From Planctopirus limnophila DSM 3776 (GTDB taxonomy: Bacteria; Planctomycetota; Planctomycetia; Planctomycetales; Planctomycetaceae): a stretch of 32,000 nt of DNA. The stretch is taken from assembly GCF_000092105.1 (NCBI RefSeq), contig NC_014148.1, positions 1,740,001 to 1,772,000 on the forward strand, in the 5' to 3' direction. Position 1 is the first letter of the stretch. Every line of letters begins with the position of its first letter. The notes beneath the pieces are model-generated. The model was not told the DNA's origin and did no database searches. It saw only the letters and a program-made list of their open reading frames with translations. Position numbers and translations under genes: made by a program. This document shows positions 6,645 through 22,584 of the stretch, in pieces.

Positions 6645-8411
6645 GTGACTGAGTCCATGACCTCTTTTTCGTCGCATTTCTCAGCCAACGGTCAACCCGG
6701 GCCCCAGTGGCTGTCTGGCCAGGCCAACGACTCATTGCCAAGCTGCAGGCAGGGCGTGTTTCGAGTTCTCTATCAACTGAATTGTCCCAAGAACTCTGCA
6801 GAAGCTGTTGCCAGAGATATTGCACTCGAACAGACGGTCGAGGTGCCAGAGTCATTGATCACGGATGAAGTGATCTGGCAGAACTTCGCTGGCCAGGTGG
6901 TCTCTGTTCGATCAGTCTCTGAGCATGTTCAGGTGGCTTCGATTGAATACCACGCTCATCTGGCGAGTGGACACTTGGCGCAGTTGATGAACCTGCTGTT
7001 TGGAAATGTCAGTCTGAAACCCGGGGTTCGATTATTAGATGTCGAGTTTCCGGAATCTTTTCTCAGTGGATTGGCTGGGCCTAAACTTGGGATTGAAGGT
7101 CTCCGGTCAGCCTGCGGCGTTTGGGAGCGTCCTCTGCTGGCGACCGCCATCAAGCCTAAGGGGTCGTCGGTCGCGCAACTGGCACAGATCGCGGGAGAGT
7201 TTGCGGCTGGGGGCGGTGATCTCGTCAAGGATGATCACAATCTTGCAGAGAGCACGTTCGACGCCTTCCGAACTCGTGTCGAAGCCTGCCAGCAAGCCGT
7301 GCTTTCAAAGACTCCTCCAGGACAAAAATGCCTTTATTTTCCCAATCTTTCCGGGACGCTGCGTGATCTGGAACGGCAGGCAGCATTTTGTGTGGAATCC
7401 GGCATTCGGGGTGTCCTCGTGGCACCTATGATTGCCGGTCTCGAAACCATCCGCCATCTGTCGGAATCTTTTCCCTTGGCGATACTTGCCCATCCGACAA
7501 TGTCCGGTTCATTCCTGCAGGAAGGGCAGGGCCTATCGCATGCATTCTGGCTTTCGACCATGATGCGTCTGTGCGGTTGTGATGGAACTGTGTTCCCCAA
7601 TACGGGAGGAAGGTTTTCCTTCTCACAGGCAGATTGTCTGTCGATCGCAGACGCGGCACGAAAACCTCTCGGACGATTGAAGAGTTGTTTCCCGGCACCG
7701 GCGGGAGGCATGTCGTATGCATCGCTTCCAGGAATGGCTCGCGACTACGGCCCGGACACGATCTTTCTGGTCGGAGGCGGACTACTCGGTTACTCAGAAA
7801 ATCTCGCAGACAGCACGGCGGCATTTCGCTCCAGAATCGAAGAACTGTTCCTCACGAATCAAGCGTCTCAGAATTCCAATCCGGATCCTCGTGGCCAGTA
7901 TGTTTCTTCGTGTGAACTGCCAGCAGCGTATCCACCAGGAGCTCAAAATTCTGGCATCGCCGAGTATGCTCAGGGAAATGAAAAGTCAGGAATCTCGTCT
8001 TTAGATTCTGCCAATTCGATCGTGACTCAACTGCTCAAGTTTTTGCCTGGTTATCGATGGGAAAAACGCGAAGTTTCGGTTTACAAACCTAATGCTGGCT
8101 TGCCATTTGCGCATGTGGATCGACAGGAACTGATTGGGAAGTTTGGAGAGTCAACGGCATTTGATGTGCGATACTTCGAACTGGCGCCCGGTGGCTATTC
8201 GAGTCGTGAAAAGCATTTCCATACGCATGTCGTAATTCCCGTTCGCGGCCAGGGTCAATTGGAGTGCCAGGGACAGATTTTTCCTTTGCAGCACCTGGAT
8301 ATTGCTTACGTTCCGCCACTGGCTGTGCATCAATTGTCCAATCCAACCGATGAACCATTTGGTTTTCTGTGCATTGTTGATCATGATCGTGATGCGCCGA
8401 TGGCCCCTTAA
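6645..8411 (+). CDS. RuBisCO-like protein (form IV RuBisCO large-subunit homologue) fused to a C-terminal cupin domain
   Basis: This is a 588-aa ORF. Residues ~36-403 carry RuBisCO large-subunit landmarks: FGNVSLKPGVRLLDVEFP, GPKLGIEGLR, ERPLLATAIKPKGSS, GGGDLVKDDHNL, ILAHPTMSGSF, FPAPAGGMSY and FLVGGGLLGY. A ~55-aa low-complexity linker follows. Residues ~458-588 are a cupin with motif 1 (GGYSSREKHFHTHVVIPVRGQG) and motif 2 (DIAYVPPLAVHQLSN). The start is GTG 6645 or ATG 6657. Confidence 0.9.
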   Translation: MTESMTSFSSHFSANGQPGPQWLSGQANDSLPSCRQGVFRVLYQLNCPKNSAEAVARDIALEQTVEVPESLITDEVIWQNFAGQVVSVRSVSEHVQVASIEYHAHLASGHLAQLMNLLFGNVSLKPGVRLLDVEFPESFLSGLAGPKLGIEGLRSACGVWERPLLATAIKPKGSSVAQLAQIAGEFAAGGGDLVKDDHNLAESTFDAFRTRVEACQQAVLSKTPPGQKCLYFPNLSGTLRDLERQAAFCVESGIRGVLVAPMIAGLETIRHLSESFPLAILAHPTMSGSFLQEGQGLSHAFWLSTMMRLCGCDGTVFPNTGGRFSFSQADCLSIADAARKPLGRLKSCFPAPAGGMSYASLPGMARDYGPDTIFLVGGGLLGYSENLADSTAAFRSRIEELFLTNQASQNSNPDPRGQYVSSCELPAAYPPGAQNSGIAEYAQGNEKSGISSLDSANSIVTQLLKFLPGYRWEKREVSVYKPNAGLPFAHVDRQELIGKFGESTAFDVRYFELAPGGYSSREKHFHTHVVIPVRGQGQLECQGQIFPLQHLDIAYVPPLAVHQLSNPTDEPFGFLCIVDHDRDAPMAP

Positions 8412-8476: not shown

Positions 8477-10783
8477 ATGCAGTCCAGTGCCCAGCAACCA
8501 TCGTTGTTTACGCCAGAAGACCTTCCTGAGGTTTCGACCCCCTGGGAGATCGTGGACAGTGAAGATCAACTCTACGCTGAAGTGGTTTTCAACCTGCCCA
8601 TGCTCAAGTCCTACCACTATCTTGTCCCTTCGGGGCTCAGAGACAACATACGCCCCGGTTCGAGAGTGCGAGTTCCTTTTGGGACTGGCCAGAAGTTGAC
8701 TCAAGGGTACTGTGTCTCTTTAACAAGGACTCGACCTGCACATCGAAACTTTAAATCGATCGAATCCTTACTTGATGTCGCTCCACTGGTCGATGCCGCC
8801 ATGTTGCGACTGACGAGATGGATCAGTGAAGAGTACTTGTGCAGTTGGGGTCAGGTGCTCGATTCGGTAATCCCGGCGGGAGTGAAATCGAAAGCCGGGA
8901 CTCGTGAACTTTTGCACTTCGAACTTGCCGAAGGCTATGAAACTCGACTGACAACTCTCAAATTGTCGGCCACTCAGCAGCGAATTGTCGATGTCCTGAG
9001 ATCAACAACGGAGCCGATGGCCGGAGATGAATTGACCTCTCTGGCGGAATGTGGGCTCTCGCCTCTGCAAACCCTGCGGAACAAAGGGATTGTCGTTTCC
9101 ACCAAAATTCGCACCTGGTCAAAGTCGGTTTCCAGCGCAGGAGAGAACGATACTTCGGCCATTCTCCTGAATCGAAATCAACACTCGGCTGTCACCAGGG
9201 TCATCGAGTCGCTGGCATCAGGGAAGTCGGAAACTTTTCTACTCTACGGCGTCACTGGCAGTGGCAAGACAGAAGTCTATATCCGCGTGATTGAAGAAGT
9301 TGTGAGGTACGGTCGGCAGGCCATTGTGCTGGTGCCGGAAATCAGTCTCACTCCGCAGACAATCCGGCGTTTTCGTAAGCGATTTGCTTCGGTCGCTGTA
9401 TTGCATTCTCATTTGAGTGATGCCGAGCGGCATAGCTATTGGCAGCAGATCGCACGAGGCCAGGTGCAGGTGATTGTCGGGGCCAGAAGTGCGATTTTTG
9501 CACCGGCTCCGAACCTGGGTCTGGTGGTGATCGATGAAGAGCATGAAACGAGTTTCAAGCAGGATTCGACGCCTCGGTATCATGCTCGGGAGGTTGCCAG
9601 GCAACGAGTGCGCGATGCCGGGATACCACTGATTCTTGGTTCTGCCACACCGACTCTCGAAACCTGGCTTCGCGGGATTCGAAAAGAAGAGATCGTGCTT
9701 TCTCTGCCTTATCGAGTGGCTCAAAGGCCATTGCCACCTGTGATGATTGTCGATACCCGCAACGATCAGTCACTTCAGAAAGGAGCTTCTCTGGGGCGAG
9801 CCATGCTCGTGGCGATGCGAGAATCGTTAGCAAAGAAGGGGCAGATTATTCTGTTTCTGAATGTTCGGGGTTATTCGCCAGCACTCTTTTGCCGGGCCTG
9901 CGGGCAGAGCGTGAGGTGTCCGGATTGTGATGTCACACTCACATATCATAAACAGCGGCAAATTGCTCTGTGCCATAGCTGCGAGTATTCCATCGATCCA
10001 CCGACCAGTTGCCCGAATTGTGGAAAGCCCGGCCTGTTATTTCTCGGGCAGGGGACCGAGCGGTTGGAACACGAAGTGAAGGCTCGATTCCCCGGTGTCA
10101 GCGTGTTGCGCATGGATAGTGATACCATGCAGCAAAAAGGGAGCCACGATCGGGCTTTGGAATCTTTCCGGCAGGGTGAGGTGCGGATTCTGCTGGGAAC
10201 GCAGATGATTGCCAAAGGTCTGGATTTCCCCAACGTGACACTCGTGGGCGTGATTGATGCCGATACGTCTCTACATCAACCGGATTTTCGAGCATCTGAA
10301 CGAACTTTTCAGTTGATTGCTCAAGTCGCAGGGAGGACCGGTCGCGGTGAGCTGGGCGGCAAAGTGCTGGTGCAGACAGCGTGCCCGGATCAGCCAGCGA
10401 TCCTGTATGCCGCCCGGCATGATTATGCCGCCTTTGCACGGCAAGAACTTGAGCACAGGCATACTTTGGGATACCCGCCGTTTGTCCGCATCTTGCGGAT
10501 CATTCTTCGCGGTGAGATCGAAGCCGATGTGGAAAAAGCCGCCGAAAGAATTCGCTTGGGAATGGAATCGAAGGGGTTGGAAAGGGGTGGCATGCTGGCA
10601 AAGATCCTCGGCCCGGCACCTTGCCCAGTGGCCAGACTCAAGAAGTATTTTCGCTACCAGTTGCAGATTTCTCATCCTTCAGGAGAGGTTTTAGGTCAAT
10701 TGTGGAGAGACGTTGAACCCGTCGCGCCTGAACTCGTGCCCGTGGAAATCTCTGTCGATCTTGACCCGATCAGCTTTCGCTGA
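8477..10783 (+). CDS. priA: Primosomal protein N' (replication restart helicase PriA)
   Basis: It has Walker A (LLYGVTGSGKTEVYI) and the DEEH box (VVIDEEHETSFKQ). It has the Cys-rich zinc region (CRACGQSVRCPDCDVTLTYHKQRQIALCHSCEY...CPNCG) and the GRTGRG motif. The track ORF begins at TTG 8435, and I prefer ATG 8477 (MQSSAQQPSLF...). Confidence 0.9.
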   Translation: MQSSAQQPSLFTPEDLPEVSTPWEIVDSEDQLYAEVVFNLPMLKSYHYLVPSGLRDNIRPGSRVRVPFGTGQKLTQGYCVSLTRTRPAHRNFKSIESLLDVAPLVDAAMLRLTRWISEEYLCSWGQVLDSVIPAGVKSKAGTRELLHFELAEGYETRLTTLKLSATQQRIVDVLRSTTEPMAGDELTSLAECGLSPLQTLRNKGIVVSTKIRTWSKSVSSAGENDTSAILLNRNQHSAVTRVIESLASGKSETFLLYGVTGSGKTEVYIRVIEEVVRYGRQAIVLVPEISLTPQTIRRFRKRFASVAVLHSHLSDAERHSYWQQIARGQVQVIVGARSAIFAPAPNLGLVVIDEEHETSFKQDSTPRYHAREVARQRVRDAGIPLILGSATPTLETWLRGIRKEEIVLSLPYRVAQRPLPPVMIVDTRNDQSLQKGASLGRAMLVAMRESLAKKGQIILFLNVRGYSPALFCRACGQSVRCPDCDVTLTYHKQRQIALCHSCEYSIDPPTSCPNCGKPGLLFLGQGTERLEHEVKARFPGVSVLRMDSDTMQQKGSHDRALESFRQGEVRILLGTQMIAKGLDFPNVTLVGVIDADTSLHQPDFRASERTFQLIAQVAGRTGRGELGGKVLVQTACPDQPAILYAARHDYAAFARQELEHRHTLGYPPFVRILRIILRGEIEADVEKAAERIRLGMESKGLERGGMLAKILGPAPCPVARLKKYFRYQLQISHPSGEVLGQLWRDVEPVAPELVPVEISVDLDPISFR

Positions 10784-10854
10784 ATCAATTCCCAAGCCTT
10801 CGAAAAGCTGGGCCTCACGGCCGATTGTCGGGGTGTATCAATGAAGAACGGCAT

Positions 10855-11199
10855 TTACCGCTCGACACAAATCTGGTTGCAGATATGTCGGTCGGTCACC
10901 AATTGTTGTGTCATTGATGAGACAAGTTGCTTGGCATGATAGGACGGGCAAACACCGGTCAATATGACGCGATCATCCGACCAGCAGAGTTCGAGGTGAT
11001 GTACCAATCCTCTTAAACGATTGCGGAGAATCTCTGCCGTATCGTCTTCTTCCAATTTGTTGGCAGGGTCGATCATTTCAAAGACCGGCATGCTGGAAGA
11101 ACCAGGGTTGACCACAGCAGTCCCATCATTATCAGCCTCACGTGGCTCGTGTGGCCATGCCGTTGTGATCACCGCAAACTTCGCTGGTTGAGAAATCAT
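10855..11199 (-). CDS. BON-domain-like small protein (hypothetical)
   Basis: The C-terminal ~60 aa (LELCWSDDRVILTGVCPSYHAKQLVSSMTQQLVTDRHICNQICV) follow the BON pattern of a hydrophobic strand, xLxGxV, helix, then V.N.I.V. I prefer ATG 11199, preceded by AGGGA, over the track start at 11253. The assignment rests on pattern resemblance only. Confidence 0.5.
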   Translation of the reverse strand: MISQPAKFAVITTAWPHEPREADNDGTAVVNPGSSSMPVFEMIDPANKLEEDDTAEILRNRLRGLVHHLELCWSDDRVILTGVCPSYHAKQLVSSMTQQLVTDRHICNQICVER

Positions 11200-11702
11200 G
11201 GTGCCATCCCTGCTGGTGAATTCTTGAGCCACCCATGTCAAAACGACGGGCATTGAGAATGATTGTTGTACAAGACAATGACAATCATGCAGCCTTCCTT
11301 GACTGAATTCATTTGCTCTAAAAGCTACCCCTCGCGATTCAATCCGTCAAAGAAATTTTGTATGAATCCTGGGTTTGTAATTCTCTGCATATGTGCTGGG
11401 GAAATCTGGTTGGGTCGATATTCATTCTGTACTGGAAAATGGCTGTTTTCATGCTGTTTCTCTAGCAGGAAGTAACTTTTTCTGAAGCATCCATCCTGCG
11501 TGGAGAGACAACTTTCATCGCTTCATATAAGCTGTCGAAGAATGTCAGCCATGTAAATTCTCACGAATTGGAATCTCCCGGGTGATTTCTGGGGTGAAAG
11601 CCTCTTCTTGAGTGCCGGCCAATGTCTGTTATTGACTGCAACAGGTTGTGTGAACACCTCCCCTCGGTTTTATCCTGAGAGTCTTAAAAACACTAAAGGT
11701 TC

Positions 11703-12773
11703 ATGCTCATGCCTCTCTCTGAATTGGATCGCAAGTTTCTCGATGATCTCCTGGCGGCTCCCAGTCCCTCAGGATATGAGCAACCGATTCAGGATGTTGT
11801 CCGGGCTTATGCAGCCGGGTTTGCAGAGACTGTCACCACAGATCGACATGGGAATGTGATGGCCTGTGTGAATCCTCAAGGACAGGTGCGCATCATGCTG
11901 GCTGGCCATTGCGACCAGATTGGCCTGATTGTCAAAAACATCGACGAAAAAGGGTTTATCTGGGTGCAGACGATTGGTGGTTGGGATCCCATGGTCCTGC
12001 TGGGACAGCGCGTGCAGGTTTGGACACGCAGCGGACCGATTCCAGGGATTATGGCTCGCAAGCCGATTCATCTGCAGTCGCCGGAAGATCGCAAAGCTGT
12101 TCCCGAAATCAAGAATTTGTGGGTCGATATTGGCGCTCTGAATGGAGAAGAAGCCAGGGCGGCCGTGCGAGTTGGCGATGTCATTACCTGTGAACTTCAT
12201 CAGCAAACCATGCGAAACGGCTTTGTCAGCGGTGTGGCCATGGATGATAAGGTCGGAGTCTGGACTGTATTTACGGCGGCCCGCCGGGCGGCACTTCAAT
12301 CGCCAAAGGCGGCGATTTATGCAGTCTCCACCGTACAGGAAGAAATTGGTCTGCGCGGTGTGCAGACGAGTGCCGCCGCCATCCGTCCACAGATCGGTCT
12401 GGTGACTGATGTGACCCATGCCACCGATTGTCCGACGATTGATGAGAATCAGCATGGTCGCATCAAGCTGGGGCAGGGTCCGGTCGTTTATCGCGGGCCG
12501 AATACTAATCCTCGGGTCTTCGACCTGATTGAAGAAGAAGCTGCGAAGCACGGGATCCCTTATCAGCTGGCTTCATTAGGCACACCAGCCAGTAACGATG
12601 CGGCTCAACTCCAGTTGGCGGGCGATGGAGTGGCCATGGGATTGATCTGCATTCCCAATCGATACATGCACAGCCCAGTGGAAATGGTCTCGCTGGAGGA
12701 TCTGGATCACGCGGCCAATCTGATGGCCGCGTTTTGCGTGCGGATTCAGGATGATACGAATCTCATCCCGTAA
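11703..12773 (+). CDS. M42-family metallo-aminopeptidase (glutamyl aminopeptidase / FrvX-YsdC-like)
   Basis: This 356-aa ORF has PSPSGYEQPI, IMLAGHCDQIGLIV, GVAMDDKVGV, VQEEIGLRG, and CIPNRYMHSPVEMVSLEDL at the C-terminus. Together these are the typical M42 metal-ligand blocks. Confidence 0.85.
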   Translation: MLMPLSELDRKFLDDLLAAPSPSGYEQPIQDVVRAYAAGFAETVTTDRHGNVMACVNPQGQVRIMLAGHCDQIGLIVKNIDEKGFIWVQTIGGWDPMVLLGQRVQVWTRSGPIPGIMARKPIHLQSPEDRKAVPEIKNLWVDIGALNGEEARAAVRVGDVITCELHQQTMRNGFVSGVAMDDKVGVWTVFTAARRAALQSPKAAIYAVSTVQEEIGLRGVQTSAAAIRPQIGLVTDVTHATDCPTIDENQHGRIKLGQGPVVYRGPNTNPRVFDLIEEEAAKHGIPYQLASLGTPASNDAAQLQLAGDGVAMGLICIPNRYMHSPVEMVSLEDLDHAANLMAAFCVRIQDDTNLIP

Positions 12774-15800: not shown

Positions 15801-16549
15801 TGGCGGATGTTCAGCGGGGTGCGGAAGGTCGCAGGCGATTGAGTGTTTCGCGACTGGAGGAGTTTCAGGAACAAAGTTCATCGAAATTGAAGAGTCTCGT
15901 TCCAGCAGGTGAATTGGAAGCACATTCGGCGAGTCTCAGTCGCAGCGATGCGGAACTGTTGGGAGAAATGATTCATGGCGTACTGGAGCGATTTGAACCT
16001 CGCGCCGCAGAGGAGTCCGAAAAGGCTTTGCTCCATCGACTGTGGCTGTGGTGCCAGAGACAGCCTGCACCACCTGGAGGCCAGATTCTGGAGCAGGCAC
16101 AGCAATGGCTCAAGACGTTTGCATCGACCGAGCTGATTGATGAACTGGCCATGGCCAGTGAACTGAATCGAGAACTGGAGTTCAGTCTCGATTGGAAAAT
16201 GACTGGAGAAGAGCCGAAACGAGAAACAGAGATCTATGGTCTGATCGATGTCCTGATGAAGGATTCTCAGGATGATTGGATCATTCTCGATTACAAGACG
16301 AGTCGCCTTGCGGCTGGAGTAACTGATGAACTGCTGCTCCAGCCGTATCGATTGCAATTGGGAACATATGCCCTCGCCGTGCAGCGGCTTTTTGGTCGCC
16401 TTCCCAAAAAAGCCGAACTGATTTTTATGCGTCCCAAGCCCCGCCGAGTGGTCTGGAACATGGAGCAGGTGCAAGTTTCCGATCTGGAACAACTTGTGAC
16501 CGAGGCAATCCATCAGTTGGATGCGGCACAGGCTTCGAGCTCATTCTGA
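12869..16549 (+). CDS. UvrD/Rep-superfamily helicase with C-terminal RecB-type PD-(D/E)xK nuclease (AddA/RecB-like)
   Basis: This 1226-aa ORF has SF1 motifs I (SAGAGCGKTF), Ia (ITFTDKAAREM), TIHSFC, II (MVDEFQDTDPVQ), III (LVGDQKQSIYRFRGA), IV (INFRS), V (SIHQSKGLEFPVVF) and VI (LLYVAATRARDLLIL). The nuclease motifs are GLIDVLMKDSQDDWIILDYKTSR and YRLQLGTYALAV. Confidence 0.85.
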   Translation: MSTPRYTPQQTRALTEKSVSIALSAGAGCGKTFVLTRRFLGYLKPGPEQYPLTSLVAITFTDKAAREMRDRVRATCLQRVRECPPEEADHWLSLLRDLDRARISTIHSFCGNILRSHAIASGLDPEFTTLEASVADSLLRQSIEASATRLLVNDQPAFRLLAVDYGIEKLLESSGILVRQRQLISLADFAEMTAEELAGIWHRWLKETGWPAFVRQIEHQRTFVRLSEFISRTSANSPKLDEKLKILRQIMEQLKSQQDSPEPGRLAELFAELSLQARVVGVKPDHWGSPDDHELAKELFTQVRDDCKKLIETIQLAQTEFVPYAEKSLAWLSVAGESIRDYELIKKSRACVDFDDLLVLSRDLLRNDLTVRQALSRSIRVLMVDEFQDTDPVQADLVEMICGKELTTGKLFLVGDQKQSIYRFRGADPLVFRSLKSKIPAAGQLPLTINFRSQPPILHFVNILFRRVMGADYEALEPSFADEKPELERIEFLWATTDVVENKAVQGSIPSTVPLAQGLADEQARDAADAESQDVENIDDDSRSDSGEKQTAPFLRRREADWIARRILELLADPTPRIREKSGPWRTIVPGDITILFRALTNLEVYEQALEAAGIDYYVAGGRAFFAQQEIYDLAHLCQFLDDPEDGFSLVGLLRSPFFCFSDPLIHRLASRAGGITQSLFAEASVVSGLSPEETAQVQFAAQTLGSLVEQRDHWPLARIIRRALELTGYEAIVSQEFLGSRKLANVHKAIELARQFDLAGGSRAAFVTQLRESIDQESREELAATHPESSSVVRLMSIHQSKGLEFPVVFVADMNRPRKTESLPPTLHPQLGALVTPSNPLGERQKHPVGQFIEIMEEAASLEEYQRLLYVAATRARDLLILSAGIKGFDEGKFSPWMLVLKQVFHLETGLLRNDPWFASGHEDVKTPQEIPLIRTHHQPPQFIDHRVQRQGVHKLSFPQVWNELELAESLPWPQLVADVQRGAEGRRRLSVSRLEEFQEQSSSKLKSLVPAGELEAHSASLSRSDAELLGEMIHGVLERFEPRAAEESEKALLHRLWLWCQRQPAPPGGQILEQAQQWLKTFASTELIDELAMASELNRELEFSLDWKMTGEEPKRETEIYGLIDVLMKDSQDDWIILDYKTSRLAAGVTDELLLQPYRLQLGTYALAVQRLFGRLPKKAELIFMRPKPRRVVWNMEQVQVSDLEQLVTEAIHQLDAAQASSSF

Positions 16550-16772
16550 GAATTGATTGAACCTGAAGTTTATTTGGCCATCTGATCCAAAGTACCTTGC
16601 GATGGTCGCTCAGCATTTTGACGCGATTCTCCAGAATCACACCTTCGATCGTGTTATGGCTGAACGTCTTTCGGAATATGCCGTTCAAAATTGGAGGACA
16701 GACGTTGCTTTGTAGACCACAAAGGTGATCGTGCCATTCGAATGAGGTTTGTGAAGGGCGAAGGTTAGCCTT

Positions 16773-16826
16773 GATCCCCCGGCGGGTGTTCACCACGGTC
16801 GAAACTGGGATCTCAACCGGGGGATC
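16773..16826. repeat. Perfect 10-bp GC-rich inverted repeat with a 34-nt spacer
   Basis: GATCCCCCGG (16773-16782) and CCGGGGGATC (16817-16826) lie in the convergent spacer between the addA-like gene and the lipoprotein gene. No U-tract follows on either strand. Confidence 0.6.
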
Positions 16827-16834
16827 CTTCTGCG

Positions 16835-17254
16835 TCAATTAGTGCCACCCGTCGCGATTTGTGTGAGCGTGTTGTTGCGTTGTGTTTCATTCTCAATTTT
16901 CTTGGCCACTGCAGTCGCTTCAGATGTCTTGCCATGTTTGGCTAATACCAGGCTGCAGATTGCACAGGTGTTGTCGCGAGCTGTCCCAGTATCAACCGCC
17001 GCAATTGCATTGAGCACGACTTCTCCATCGCCGGCCTGAGCGGCGTTTTCTGCCAACTTTACGAGGGTGTTATGCTTGGCAGTGCCATCTTTCATGGCTA
17101 GCGCAGCTTCCAATCGGCCCGAAAGTTCGGTCGTCCCAGCGACAGGTGCTGGTTCCTGACGGACACAGCCGGTAAAGAGAACTAACAGCAACAAGATTCT
17201 TGAAATGTTTCTCAAGCAGAATTCCTTTGTGTCAAATGAGTTATCGTTAGTCAT
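16835..17254 (-). CDS. Hypothetical lipoprotein
   Basis: It has a signal peptide with a lipobox (ISRILLLLVLFTG|C). The mature part has three loosely repeated units ending in xNT(L/C)xx(L/I)A: AKHNTLVKLA, ARDNTCAICSLVLA and QRNNTLTQIA. The track ORF starts at TTG 17281, and I prefer ATG 17254 with GGAG just upstream. Confidence 0.6.
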   Translation of the reverse strand: MTNDNSFDTKEFCLRNISRILLLLVLFTGCVRQEPAPVAGTTELSGRLEAALAMKDGTAKHNTLVKLAENAAQAGDGEVVLNAIAAVDTGTARDNTCAICSLVLAKHGKTSEATAVAKKIENETQRNNTLTQIATGGTN

Positions 17255-17652
17255 GGACTCCGGGATGGCGATGGCTTTCAACCAATGGCCTTATACGAGG
17301 GTCCACTTCAAGAATTCGTTGTGGAAAATGCGATGTATCGCTCTTTATGCCGCGATTTTCTTGTGAAGTGAGAAAGCGTTGATAAACAGACTTGGGTTAT
17401 GAATCGATGCACGTTACTGAATGACATTGAGCCAAACCAGTCGCTAATGCCAGAAATAGCTGAAACAACCAGTGTTTCACCTATTGTGACTGAAACGCTC
17501 CCAAAACCAGAGGACATGCGGCCTCAAGCGAAGTGCAGCTCAAGAGTAGATCGGATTCTCTGCGAAAATGGTGCACCTCCCGACTTTTGCCAACGGTTAA
17601 GAGTTCGCGTTTTCAAAGGGTGGTCAAGTTATATTGGCAGGCCTTGAACTTC

Positions 17653-17683
17653 TCATGATGTCTACCAAAGTCAGACATCATGA
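17653..17683. repeat. Perfect 11-bp stem with a 9-nt loop
   Basis: TCATGATGTCT (17653-17663) and AGACATCATGA (17673-17683) are exact reverse complements. The hairpin sits inside the gene-less region upstream of htrA. Confidence 0.6.
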
Positions 17684-18279
17684 CTTCAACCTGAATTCCG
17701 TTTGAGAGACCTTTCATGTCACTAGCTTGGAGTGGTGTCTTGTCGTCGTTCTTCACGGCGACCCGGCATCAGTTGGCTGTACCACCCATCAGGTTTGCGA
17801 GTGATGAGTTTGGGAAGGGGTGAGAGTTTGGCGCTTTCTTCCTGGCGATGTGGATCTCGCTTGTTTCTCTTGAGAAGGGAAGAAAACTTCCAGAGGTATT
17901 GCATTCGTTGTGATCAGAATCCCTTGCCGAGATTCCGCAACAGTCACAACACATGAAGTCCCATCAACAAAAGTGCCTCTGCGACACCTTAGTTGACACA
18001 CATCCTGATTCATGTGGCACGGTTGACTACAGAAGAGGTCTTTGTGCAATGAGATTTTTTTCGTGTGAATCTGTTCTGATCAGGTAAGATTTGACGGATC
18101 GGATGACTCTCCGGCACATCGAAGGTCGCAACTAGAATCTCCGCAGGTGATGCAACCCGCAAAGTATGGCTTTGTCTGCGATCTTTGAGATGTTCCGCCG
18201 AAGAGACATACGAGCGACTTCTGCCTGGTCTCCTCCCAGCGTCGCCCAATGTCAGGGCCGTTTCTTCAGAAAGCCTGAA

Positions 18280-19782: not shown

Positions 19783-20313
19783 GTGCACGGGTTGGGAAGG
19801 GAGAGATCATTGGCGTCAAACGATCACTGGCGTATCGAAGTCGCCGCCTCTCAATCGCCGTGGACTCATCCCCATTGGGTTGAATGGATCAAGTGGGTAG
19901 TAGCCTCATATGCTCAATGGACGGGACAATCCCTTTCCGATGCAGGCCCGGAAGAATTTCCCAGAGTGCTGTTCCATGCCCCGTTTGTGCTGGTTTCGCA
20001 TGGAAAGGAAGCTGACCCAGTCCTGTGCTACGGCAATCAGACAGCTCTGAAACTGTGGGAAATGAGCCTCTCTCAGTTTCTCGAAACACCTTCACGATAT
20101 ACGGCCGAACCGATGCATCGTGATGAACGGGCACAACTCCTCGAACGCACGACCAGGTACGGATTTGTCGACGATTACCAGGGAATCCGCATCTCTGCGT
20201 CGGGCACTCGATTTCGCATCCACCAGGCGACGGTCTGGAATGTGATCGACGCAGAGGGAACCTATCAGGGACAGGCCGCCATGTTCCACGAATGGACACC
20301 AATTGGTTCGTAA
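19783..20313 (+). CDS. MEKHLA-domain (PAS-like) protein
   Basis: The sequence FHAPFVLVSHGKEADPVLCYGNQTALKLWEMSLSQFLETPSRYTAEP...RAQLLERTTRYGFVDDYQGIRISASGTRFRIHQATVWNVIDAEGTYQGQAAMF matches my memory of stand-alone bacterial MEKHLA proteins. The start is uncertain. It is either GTG 19783 or, perhaps better, TTG 19810, which is preceded by GGGAGAG. Confidence 0.65.
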   Translation: MHGLGRERSLASNDHWRIEVAASQSPWTHPHWVEWIKWVVASYAQWTGQSLSDAGPEEFPRVLFHAPFVLVSHGKEADPVLCYGNQTALKLWEMSLSQFLETPSRYTAEPMHRDERAQLLERTTRYGFVDDYQGIRISASGTRFRIHQATVWNVIDAEGTYQGQAAMFHEWTPIGS

Positions 20314-20349: not shown

Positions 20350-21438
20350 TCAGGCACTCAGCACTTTGCGGACGTTGGCTTCCGTAACCGGCTGAATAAT
20401 GCCCTTTTCCGTGATGATCGCCGTAATGAGTTCCGCCGGTGCGAAATCGAATGCCGGGTTGTAAACATTGGCACCTGTGGGGGCGAGCTGGACACCCCCA
20501 GGATGAGTAATCTCAGTGGAGACTCTTTCTTCGATGGGAATTGATTTCCCTTCGAGAAGCGTCAGGTCGAATGTGGAGGATGGAGCTGAGACATAAAACG
20601 GAATTTTGTGGTAATGACATAACACCGCCACGCTGTATGTCCCAATTTTATTGGCGGCATCGCCACGGGCGGTGATGCGATCAGCCCCGACAATGGCGGC
20701 GCCAATCCGGCCTTCCTTCATGACCTGCCCGGCCATGGAATCTGTAATGAGAGTACAGGGGATTCCTCTTTGCATGAGTTCCCACATGGTCAGTCGGGCC
20801 CCCTGAAGCAAAGGGCGGGTTTCATCAGCATAAACATGAATCTGCTTGCCAGCGGCATGCGCATGAGCCAGAGCGGCGAACGCTGTTCCATCACCGGCTG
20901 TGGCTAATCCACCTGTATTGCAGTGTGTCAGAATCCCGCTGTTGGCAGGCAGCAGCGAGGCTCCGAATTCTCCCAGTCTGGCACACATGGCGCGGTCTTC
21001 AGTTTCAATGGCCTGTGCCTCAACTAACAATCTTTTCTGAAGATCGGCAGCACTCATTTGTGGGTGATCTTTGGCAACTTGCTCCATGCGCTGGATGGCC
21101 CAGAAGAGATTGACAGCCGTGGGCCGACTTTCGGCCAGGTATCTGGCCACCTTGGCCAATTGTTGATCGAACTCTCCTCGCGAGACATCTGCCCCTGGCT
21201 GAAAGAGTGGTTGCAGGCCGACGACTATTCCATAGGCCGCCGCCACACCAATCGCAGGAGCGCCGCGAACTTTGAGCTGCTTGATCGCCTCCCAGATGTG
21301 TTCCACGGTGTTCCCATCGATATGCTTTAACTGCGTGGGCAATACCGTCTGGTCGATCAGCTTCAGTGATCCGGTCAGTTCGTCCGCTTGCCACTCCAGA
21401 GCACGATAACTGGGCAACGACACAGGATTGGACACCAT
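20350..21438 (-). CDS. mtnA: S-methyl-5-thioribose-1-phosphate isomerase (methionine salvage)
   Basis: There is strong block similarity to MtnA: KVRGAPAIGVAAAYG, SRPTAVNLFWA, ILTHCNTGGLATAG, ADETRPLLQGARLTMWELMQRGIPCTLITDSMAG, IVGADRITARGDAANKIGTY, IPIEER and NPAFDFAPAELITAIITEKG. I prefer ATG 21438 (MVSNPVSL...) over the track start at 21483. Confidence 0.85.
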   Translation of the reverse strand: MVSNPVSLPSYRALEWQADELTGSLKLIDQTVLPTQLKHIDGNTVEHIWEAIKQLKVRGAPAIGVAAAYGIVVGLQPLFQPGADVSRGEFDQQLAKVARYLAESRPTAVNLFWAIQRMEQVAKDHPQMSAADLQKRLLVEAQAIETEDRAMCARLGEFGASLLPANSGILTHCNTGGLATAGDGTAFAALAHAHAAGKQIHVYADETRPLLQGARLTMWELMQRGIPCTLITDSMAGQVMKEGRIGAAIVGADRITARGDAANKIGTYSVAVLCHYHKIPFYVSAPSSTFDLTLLEGKSIPIEERVSTEITHPGGVQLAPTGANVYNPAFDFAPAELITAIITEKGIIQPVTEANVRKVLSA

Positions 21439-21693
21439 GGGGAATTCTCTTTGGCTTGGCAGAACATTCAGGAAGATTCTCAAGAGTTGGTACGCTAACC
21501 GAAATGACTAAGACGTACCAACGAAGGCCACTTTCCCAGCGGTTTGAAGTTCAAAGTCGCCGATTTCAATCGTGGTCGTTCGGGACGAGACAAACTTTTT
21601 CGGAAAGAGGTGAACCCGAACCCGACAGTTGATAACATGCAAATCTGTTCATGGAACATGAAATTGGGATGTTTTGACCTCTGGAGTCTGGCC

Positions 21694-22584
21694 ATGCGAG
21701 TGATCTGCAAGAGTTTTCTGGTGCTGGCGTTGGGTTGGTTGAGCCTGTTCGCGGGACAGGAAGGATCTTTACAGGCAGCTGATGCACCTGCCAAGAAGTA
21801 CAAAGCCCTCATGCTGACTCAAAGTGCAGGATTTACGCATGGCTCGGTACGTCGCCCGAAAGCTGAAGGCGATGCACCGCAGAAGCTGAGTGCGTCAGAA
21901 ATCGCGATGACACAACTCGGCCAGCAGACCGGTCTGTTTGATGTGACCTGTACGCAGGATGCCGCCAGCGATTTCACGAAAGAGAACCTGTCCAAGTACG
22001 ACATGGTGATTTTCTACACGACTGGCAATCTGCCCATTGCCGATGCCGATAAAGAATACTTTCTCAATGACTGGCTAAAGCAGGAAGGTCATGCCTTCAT
22101 CGGGTTCCATTCCGCGACAGATACGTTCAACAACTACAAACCCTATTTTGATTTTGTAGGTGGTACGTTTGATGGACATCCCTGGGGAGCAGGCGAGACA
22201 GTCACCATCAAGATTCACGATCCTGAGTTTCCCGCGATGAAGCCACTGGGGAGCGAACTGGTCGTCAAGGACGAAATCTATCAGTACAAAAATTATCGGC
22301 CTGAAAACGTCCGAGTATTGATGAGCCTCGATATGTCCAAGTGCAAAACCAAGCGTCCTTACATGGTGCCGGTCTCGTGGGTAAAAGAACATGGCAAGGG
22401 GCGATTGTTCTACACCAATCTGGGCCATAATGAAGGCACCTGGACCAACCCCACTTTCCTGGAGCATGCTCATCAGGGAATTCGTTGGGCCTTGCGGCTC
22501 GAAGAAGGAAATGCCACGCCGAATCCTGAGCTTCAGGCCAAACTTCAGGAAGAGGCCAAGGCAGCCGCAGAGCCTGCCAAGTGA
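21694..22584 (+). CDS. Secreted ThuA-domain protein (trehalose-utilisation-like, class-I glutamine-amidotransferase-like fold)
   Basis: A signal peptide (MRVICKSFLVLALGWLSLFAGQ) begins at ATG 21694, with GGAG 7 nt upstream. ThuA-type blocks are present: YDMVIFYTTG, GHAFIGFHSATDTF, FDFVGGTFDGHP, PVSWVKEHGKGRLFYTNLGH and GIRWAL. The track ORF starts at 21544. Confidence 0.8.
   Translation: MRVICKSFLVLALGWLSLFAGQEGSLQAADAPAKKYKALMLTQSAGFTHGSVRRPKAEGDAPQKLSASEIAMTQLGQQTGLFDVTCTQDAASDFTKENLSKYDMVIFYTTGNLPIADADKEYFLNDWLKQEGHAFIGFHSATDTFNNYKPYFDFVGGTFDGHPWGAGETVTIKIHDPEFPAMKPLGSELVVKDEIYQYKNYRPENVRVLMSLDMSKCKTKRPYMVPVSWVKEHGKGRLFYTNLGHNEGTWTNPTFLEHAHQGIRWALRLEEGNATPNPELQAKLQEEAKAAAEPAK

Follow-up and report, generated by a model that had tools for sequence, protein, structure and literature searches.

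We report that a gene of Planctopirus limnophila DSM 3776 joins a RuBisCO-like protein (RLP) and a cupin in one polypeptide, and that its product is probably a bifunctional enzyme of the methylthioadenosine (MTA)-isoprenoid shunt. The gene lies in the stretch of DNA analysed here (32,000 nucleotides, NC_014148.1, positions 1,740,001 to 1,772,000; the window), where positions 6645-8411 (+) form one uninterrupted open reading frame (ORF) with a GTG start. Counted from GTG 6645 the frame encodes 588 aa, exactly as claimed in a preliminary description of the same sequence. That an RLP and a methylsulfurylase work as a pair was already known in 2012, from genes that are separate; the form described here is a natural fusion of this known enzyme pair, a predicted bifunctional RLP-methylsulfurylase. 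The fusion was earlier put forward as a Rosetta-stone link. It does bring two apparently consecutive steps together on one chain, but the link was already known from the separate genes, so the fusion confirms and extends this link rather than revealing it.

Domain layout of the fused protein

The protein consists of three parts: an RLP domain (aa 36-405; 6750-7859, +), a linker that is predicted to be disordered (aa 406-461; 7860-8027, +) and a complete cupin domain (aa 462-588; 8028-8408, +). The Pfam matches are RuBisCO_large (aa 149-399, E 2.9e-21), Cupin_2 (aa 510-578, E 6.9e-8) and, weakly, RuBisCO_large_N (aa 50-139), and sequence matches in the PDB extend over aa 51-399 in the RLP part and over aa 462-588 in the cupin part. 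AlphaFold2, run with a family alignment of 26 sequences, predicts two confident domains (36-405 and 462-588) with disorder at aa 1-33 and 406-461; the linker is disordered again in a second model, built with 120 sequences. As Pfam, the PDB matches and AlphaFold2 agree, the limits proposed in the preliminary description (RLP at about 6750-7853, linker at 7855-8015 and cupin at 8016-8408) turn out to be right within a few codons.

The start codon is uncertain, with three candidate sites. The RefSeq protein (WP_052301512.1) starts at ATG 6657 and has 584 aa, identical to the window protein read from that position; the GenBank record (ADG67207.1) has 551 aa, which implies a start near GTG 6756, where family conservation sets in. 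The N-terminal residues (approximately 35 aa; 6645-6749, +) are unconserved in the family alignment, have a predicted local distance difference test (pLDDT) score below 50 at residues 1-33 and are possibly untranslated.

The RuBisCO-like half

The first domain combines an N-domain with a TIM barrel and is classified as DeepYkr-like on the basis of Pfam, NCBIfam, a PDB sequence search, a tree, AlphaFold2 and Foldseek. Its best PDB match is Rhodopseudomonas palustris RLP1 (3qfw; phmmer E 1e-76, 262 bits), followed by the MtnW enzymes of Bacillus subtilis (158 bits) and Geobacillus kaustophilus (148 bits), the Photo RLPs (at most 117 bits) and the Burkholderia NonPhoto RLP (74 bits). Identity amounts to 41% with 3qfw against 32% with MtnW, and when the predicted structure is searched with Foldseek 3qfw again ranks first (TM 0.91-0.93, root-mean-square deviation 2.2 A). 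The resemblance to YkrW/DeepYkrW-type RLPs acting on methylthio-pentulose phosphates, which had been noticed from short segments, is thereby borne out: 3qfw is the closest relative by sequence and by fold. The segments themselves, given earlier as AHPxxSG and FPxPxGG, are present as AHPTMSG (aa 282-288) and FPAPAGG (aa 349-355).

Three loop signatures are common to the window RLP and 3qfw, namely KDDH (K195-D-D-H198), FPNxGGRF and PxPAGG, whereas B. subtilis MtnW reads KDDE, FPSPYGS and VPSAG at these loops. In an alignment of 120 fused proteins KDDH and FPNxGGRF are essentially invariant and PxPAGG is largely so. The first of these belongs to the carbamate-lysine/metal loop signature K195-D196-D197-H198-N199 (7227-7241, +), which is essentially invariant in the fused family. 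Equally, K170 and P171 of K170-P171-K172 (7152-7160, +) are invariant among the fused proteins; we take this segment to be the counterpart of RuBisCO K175-P-K177. The residues that align with what we assume to be RuBisCO E204 and R295 are H198 and P284 in the window RLP.

Two other identities for this half were considered and rejected. For MtnW, the NCBIfam equivalog models NF007095 and TIGR03332 reach 200.5 bits (cut-off 409) and 164.3 bits (cut-off 513.6). For bona fide RuBisCO (forms I-III), the form III model reaches 138.6 bits against a cut-off of 497 and the catalytic set is incomplete; the NCBIfam RuBisCO and OiaX models score below both MtnW models for the window protein.

We also constructed a tree by neighbour joining from 221 RLP domains, with MtnW as the root and no Photo, NonPhoto, GOS or AMC references. 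Here 3qfw forms a clade (bootstrap 100) with nine loci at which the cupin is a separate, adjacent gene, and the window protein sits in a large, mostly fused group near this clade, with backbone bootstraps of 17-49%. Because these backbone bootstraps are weak, we restrict the claim to membership of the DeepYkr-like radiation, with RLP1 as the nearest characterised relative. R. palustris RLP1 (RPA2169) and Rhodospirillum rubrum Rru_A1998 are proven 1,3-isomerases that convert 5-methylthioribulose-1-phosphate (MTRu-1-P) to 1-methylthioxylulose-5-phosphate (MTXu-5-P) (PMC5893883, PMC4958253). From its sequence relationships we infer that the RLP half is an MTRu-1-P 1,3-isomerase as well, a type of enzyme that also gives MTRu-5-P as a by-product.

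The cupin half

The second domain aligns end to end (aa 462-588) with the stand-alone cupins 3ibm (E 1e-29), 3jzv (E 3.5e-21) and 3kgz (E 2.9e-19), and the next cupin in the PDB search reaches only E 4e-7. Identities are 45% with 3ibm, 38% with 3kgz and 35% with 3jzv, whose record is titled "uncharacterized protein Rru_A2000"; we take 3kgz to be from R. palustris and 3ibm from Halorhodospira. Together with the Pfam match and the conservation pattern, these matches mark the domain as a homologue of Rru_A2000/RPA2170.

Conservation was compared between 52 fused and 19 stand-alone cupins. Invariant in both groups are E522, H524, H528, D552, H562, Q563, G573, F574 and C576, whereas H526 is found in 100% of the fused and 95% of the stand-alone cupins. 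W472, Y480, H526 and the R509-Y-F block can be regarded as essentially invariant in both groups. The glutamate and the three histidines of cupin motif 1 (E522-K-H524-F-H526-T-H528; 8208-8228, +) are invariant in the fused proteins, and motif 2 (H562-Q563-L-S-N566; 8328-8342, +) contributes the H and Q that are invariant in fused and stand-alone proteins alike. The conserved E, H, D, Q and C residues form a putative metal and catalytic set.

Profiles of the acireductone dioxygenase (ARD) family do not match the window protein up to E 1; within the cupin region only Cupin_2, MannoseP_isomer and AraC_binding are matched. The expectation that the cupin would be nearer to a Cupin_2-type sulfurylase than to an ARD therefore holds, both by Pfam and by the match to 3jzv. 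Rru_A2000 and RPA2170 are MTXu-5-P methylsulfurylases, with 1-deoxyxylulose-5-phosphate (DXP) and S-methylthio-glutathione as products (PMC5893883, PMC4958253, PMC13474568), and the cupin half is predicted to catalyse the same reaction. Of the two pathways between which the preliminary description had hesitated, it is the R. rubrum type that fits, with an RLP half nearest to RLP1 and a cupin half that is a full-length match to the Rru_A2000 type.

Recurrence and distribution of the fusion

The fusion is not confined to P. limnophila. In a first protein search all 120 clusters (90% identity) among the matches listed carry both PF00016 and PF07883, at 44-98% identity to the window protein and with lengths of 512-611 aa. 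A scan covering one genome per species yielded 579 relatives, and in approximately 50 of the best 80 loci one frame without a stop encodes both domains. The fused loci belong to Planctomycetaceae, Phycisphaeraceae, Nitrospirota (Magnetobacterium and Magnetominusculus), KSB1, Gammaproteobacteria/Thiotrichales, FCPU426, Sumerlaeota, Firestonebacteria, Hydrogenedentota, Chloroflexota, Fibrobacterota and Acidobacteriota. An exhaustive search finds 34 of 142 full-length relatives (50%-identity representatives) to be fused. Among the closest relatives of the window protein, fusion is the predominant form.

The identical 584-aa protein is present in the complete P. limnophila genome and in 12 further members of its cluster, which come from independent assemblies, and the orthologue of Planctopirus hydrillae (95% identical) is likewise encoded in one frame. 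Because the fusion recurs across all 120 of these clusters and in the independent assemblies of some 50 species, a missed stop or frameshift, for which a check had been advised, is excluded. The domain and architecture query proposed at the same time returned RuBisCO_large plus Cupin_2, an arrangement that is abundant in the sequence databases and poorly named.

We also looked for fusion partners other than the cupin. This idea was abandoned, as the long relatives are mostly RLP-cupin proteins again, with longer linkers or extra sequence; the exceptions are the single clusters P0121 and P0255 and a few without an extra Pfam domain. The longer relatives (proteins P0121, P0185, P0186, P0230 and P0233) include RLP-cupin fusions of 705-785 aa with extra sequence, and one longer relative has an Inositol_P domain ahead of the RLP. 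At two loci (L051:4000-6321 and L068:8783-11092) the stop-free frame begins some 400 aa before the RLP, and this upstream part matches no Pfam family; these extensions may be untranslated.

Separate genes and neighbourhoods in related genomes

In the clade of 3qfw all nine split loci have adjacent genes in the order RLP, then cupin. Meiothermus, which has been named as a likely carrier of the MTA-isoprenoid shunt (PMC4958253), belongs to this split clade. At nine split loci RLP and cupin lie in the same frame, with one genuine stop (TAA, TAG or TGA) plus 1-3 codons before the ATG of the cupin (junctions at L049:1730-1745, L051:6321-6336, L052:1049-1058, L055:1739-1748, L056:11167-11182, L059:11140-11149, L061:11074-11086, L068:11092-11107 and L073:8027-8036). 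Since eight of these nine same-frame loci share the 3qfw clade (bootstrap 100), the arrangement may be inherited. With a single stop between two genes in frame, one point mutation could convert the split form into the fused form or the reverse, and parsimony on the locus tree gives approximately five changes between the two states.

Clustering of 867 flanking ORFs yields no neighbour of the fused genes that is conserved beyond local synteny among close relatives, and mtnA lies within 8 kb of the fusion in only one fused locus (L045). With no conserved neighbours around the fused genes, the fusion itself is the main functional link.

A different picture is seen in two Bacillota metagenome-assembled genomes (L069:5650-11155 and L074:1091-7414), where an RLP approximately 40% identical to the window RLP has no cupin nearby. 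It comes last in a same-strand string of mtnK, mtnA, a gene resembling a transketolase N-subunit and a gene resembling transketolase-C/Dxs-C. Through these strings the RLP radiation at large is connected with 5-methylthioribose and ribulose phosphates. In protein cluster P0255 an RLP and Transketolase_N/DXP_synthase_N are found on one chain. Taken together, the two strings and P0255 suggest another fate of the RLP product, in which MTXu-5-P would serve as a transketolase donor. No description of an RLP-transketolase arrangement was found in the literature searched.

The linker

The distance between PAPAGGM in the RLP and RYFE in the cupin is tightly kept around a median of 123 residues. In the window protein it measures 152, one of the five longest; its linker thus exceeds the family median by approximately 29 aa, and the extra residues are of low complexity, with no tandem repeat in the window linker. 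Although the linker is otherwise variable, it contains a motif S-[A/S]-C-[E/D] whose conservation across the alignment of 120 sequences reaches 90% or more. In the window protein this is S421-S-C423-E424-L-P426 (7905-7922, +; family consensus SACELP, from the family alignments), and it is disordered in both AlphaFold2 models. The motif, which can be extended to S-[A/S]-C-[E/D]-x-P, occurs in most fused proteins, across several phyla, and is missing from a few fused clades. Where RLP and cupin are separate genes, it was not found at their ends, and it falls outside the aligned ends of the solved stand-alone proteins.

The stand-alone methylsulfurylase uses glutathione (PMC5893883, PMC13474568). 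Because that enzyme requires an external thiol, a role of the motif as a built-in swinging thiol is conceivable: in the cupin site, Cys423 would attack MTXu-5-P at its methylthio sulfur to give Cys-S-S-CH3, and either a reductant of the cell or the invariant C576 could conceivably resolve this intermediate later. We regard this role as improbable. If true, the fused enzymes would be glutathione-independent and mechanistically unlike Rru_A2000. A related idea, that the motif tracks phyla lacking glutathione, was rejected, as it is present in fusions of Thiotrichales and other Gammaproteobacteria and missing from some fused clades.

Proposed function and alternative explanations

In the proposed scheme, MtnA (encoded elsewhere in the window) would make MTRu-1-P, which the DeepYkr-like RLP domain would isomerise to MTXu-5-P with the aid of its Lys/Asp loop, presumed to bind a metal. 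The tethered cupin, holding a metal on its conserved Glu and His residues, would then let a thiol attack the methylthio sulfur. The methylthio group would be freed, ultimately (after reduction) as methanethiol for methionine resynthesis, leaving DXP for the methylerythritol phosphate (MEP) isoprenoid pathway. A flexible linker of some 20-55 residues would keep the second active site beside the first and so capture the intermediate. What the sequences show directly is the architecture, the homology of both halves, the conservation of residues and the recurrence and distribution of the fusion; we infer the substrates, products, metal, thiol co-substrate and channelling, all but the last by homology.

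A number of observations weigh against this scheme. The window protein is only 35-41% identical to the characterised enzymes, and the weak tree backbone (17-49%) does not establish the fused clade as sister of the characterised clade. Fused and stand-alone cupins differ systematically at E495/V, D507/Q, N566/A and F572/L, and therefore the substrate or thiol specificity could differ. The fused gene has no conserved neighbour from the MTA pathway, the mtnA of the window being unlinked, and some close RLP relatives without a nearby cupin are linked to transketolase, so that the RLP product evidently can have other fates. It might be argued that the folds and the type of chemistry are the same while the substrate is another one: the RLP could act on a different 5-substituted pentulose-1-phosphate (from 5'-deoxyadenosine or another thio-sugar), or the cupin could cleave off another leaving group or work with a thiol different from glutathione. 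Apart from the low identity, the cupin differences and the missing MTA neighbours, the Cys motif specific to the fusion would agree with such a reading. Nonetheless, both halves keep the catalytic core of the characterised enzymes unchanged, RLP relatives stand in an operon with mtnK and mtnA, and mtnA is present in the genome. Furthermore, a pentulose without a methylthio group would presumably leave a methylsulfurylase nothing to remove, so that the conserved cupin partner would go unexplained. We consider a different substrate or co-substrate unlikely, though it is the most serious competitor of the MTA-isoprenoid shunt.

The other two explanations fare considerably worse. The Bacillus-type pair, which the preliminary description had offered as the alternative pathway, would make the RLP an MtnW 2,3-diketo-5-methylthiopentyl-1-phosphate enolase and the cupin an MtnD-like acireductone dioxygenase. 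MtnW models do head the NCBIfam matches and one NCBI record (the Planctopirus ephydatiae orthologue) carries the enolase name, but these models stay far under their cut-offs (200 and 164 bits against 409 and 514) and 3qfw is ahead of the MtnW structures by approximately 100 bits. With signature loops unlike those of MtnW, no ARD family match up to E 1, a cupin that is specifically Rru_A2000-like and neither mtnB nor mtnX seen in the window, this pair is very unlikely and the claim is dropped. Even less credit is due to an artefactual fusion, in which a missed stop or frameshift would have merged adjacent genes in the assembly. Such an error has some initial appeal, given that in the related characterised clade the genes are separate, in frame and divided by one stop plus 1-3 codons; a single-base error could mimic a fusion. 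Against this stand the identical protein in the complete genome and the 12 other members from independent assemblies, the single frame in P. hydrillae and in about 50 species, the 120 out of 120 fused clusters among the matches listed and a linker that carries its own conserved motif, which together reduce its probability to a negligible level.

Other features of the window

The nearest neighbours of the fused gene have no relation to MTA metabolism. Directly upstream is a small ORF resembling a membrane protein, and farther upstream, on the minus strand, are a gene resembling tartronate-semialdehyde reductase and dapA. Downstream, priA starts 24 nt past the stop of the fused gene. A scan of the window found no sigma-70-like promoter upstream of the fused gene, and no terminator-like site was found between the fusion and priA.

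The gene mtnA (20350-21483, -) encodes an S-methyl-5-thioribose-1-phosphate isomerase (TIGR00512, 422 bits against a cut-off of 279), the enzyme that makes the predicted substrate of the RLP. Its presence in the window had been remarked upon before and is real; a linkage to the fusion is not, since the two genes lie on opposite strands, 12 kb apart, and share no operon. mtnA is flanked by a stand-alone MEKHLA-domain protein (19783-20310, +; E 1.7e-54) and, on the other side, by a ThuA-domain protein (21544-22584, +), neither of which has an obvious link to MTA metabolism. No mtnB or mtnX was seen within the window.

Two regions (10783-11703 and 16549-18166) contain no ORF of at least 150 aa and have a G+C content of 0.47 and 0.49, respectively, against approximately 0.53 for the window. 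No tRNA genes and no Rfam matches were found anywhere in the window.

Annotation, literature and implications

The public names given to the window protein and its close orthologues reflect neither the cupin half nor the function argued here: they include "hypothetical protein" and, for P. ephydatiae, "2,3-diketo-5-methylthiopentyl-1-phosphate enolase", and in the databases the fusion goes under RuBisCO or MtnW enolase. In a paper from 2013 the "Planctomyces limnophilus RLP" figures solely as one of the form IV sequences whose function was unknown (PMC3655542). Full-text literature searches found no published description of an RLP-cupin fusion, though an earlier mention in Erb 2012, Warlick 2012, Imker 2008 or Tabita 2007 is possible. 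A review of methionine salvage from 2018 names the MtnAK and MtnBD fusions and no RLP-cupin fusion (PMC6302742).

The MTA-isoprenoid shunt, which turns the waste nucleoside MTA into methanethiol and a precursor of isoprenoids, is characterised in R. rubrum and R. palustris; a few other bacteria whose genes are organised alike have been suggested to possess it. Judging from the fused gene, the two steps that define the shunt may be widespread and mostly reside on a single polypeptide, with carriers in Planctomycetota, Nitrospirota, Gammaproteobacteria, Chloroflexota, Fibrobacterota and candidate phyla. This could correct the annotation of proteins now labelled as RuBisCO large subunit, MtnW enolase or cupin domain-containing protein, and is relevant to carbon-fixation surveys that tally RuBisCO-like matches. 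In the organisms that carry it, the fusion would mark a way to obtain methanethiol without oxygen and a supply of DXP that does not depend on Dxs. Finally, it offers a natural tethered system for the study of intermediate channelling and of the thiol requirement of the methylsulfurylase.

Comparison with known systems

Of the systems known, Rru_A1998/RLP1 is the closest to the RuBisCO-like half: it is the best match by sequence and fold, has the same KDDH, FPNxGGRF and PxPAGG loops and the same Rru_A2000-type cupin as partner. The window RLP differs from it by its covalent joining to the cupin and by an identity of 41%, and its own clade is largely non-proteobacterial, with weak support for how it branches with respect to the characterised one. 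Similarly, the cupin half aligns over its full length with Rru_A2000/RPA2170 (and the homologues 3kgz and 3ibm), keeps the E/H/H/H, D, HQ and GFxC core and is, like the cupins of this type in every case, adjoining or fused to a DeepYkr-like RLP. Unlike Rru_A2000 it has no free N-terminus, it is 35-45% identical to the structures of the family with approximately six systematic substitutions, and ahead of it lies a linker whose conserved Cys motif the stand-alone cupins lack.

MtnW of the YkrW clade, the 2,3-diketo-5-methylthiopentyl-1-phosphate enolase (2zvi of B. subtilis and 2oek of G. kaustophilus), shares superfamily, fold and methionine salvage with the window RLP and is its second-best match. 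The window RLP nevertheless stays below both equivalog cut-offs and has different loops, and the partners of MtnW are MtnB, MtnX and MtnD instead of a Cupin_2 methylsulfurylase. The fusions MtnBD and MtnAK of Tetrahymena likewise combine consecutive or related salvage steps on one polypeptide (PMC6302742, PMC3698126), whereas the fusion in P. limnophila involves other enzymes and another branch of the pathway.

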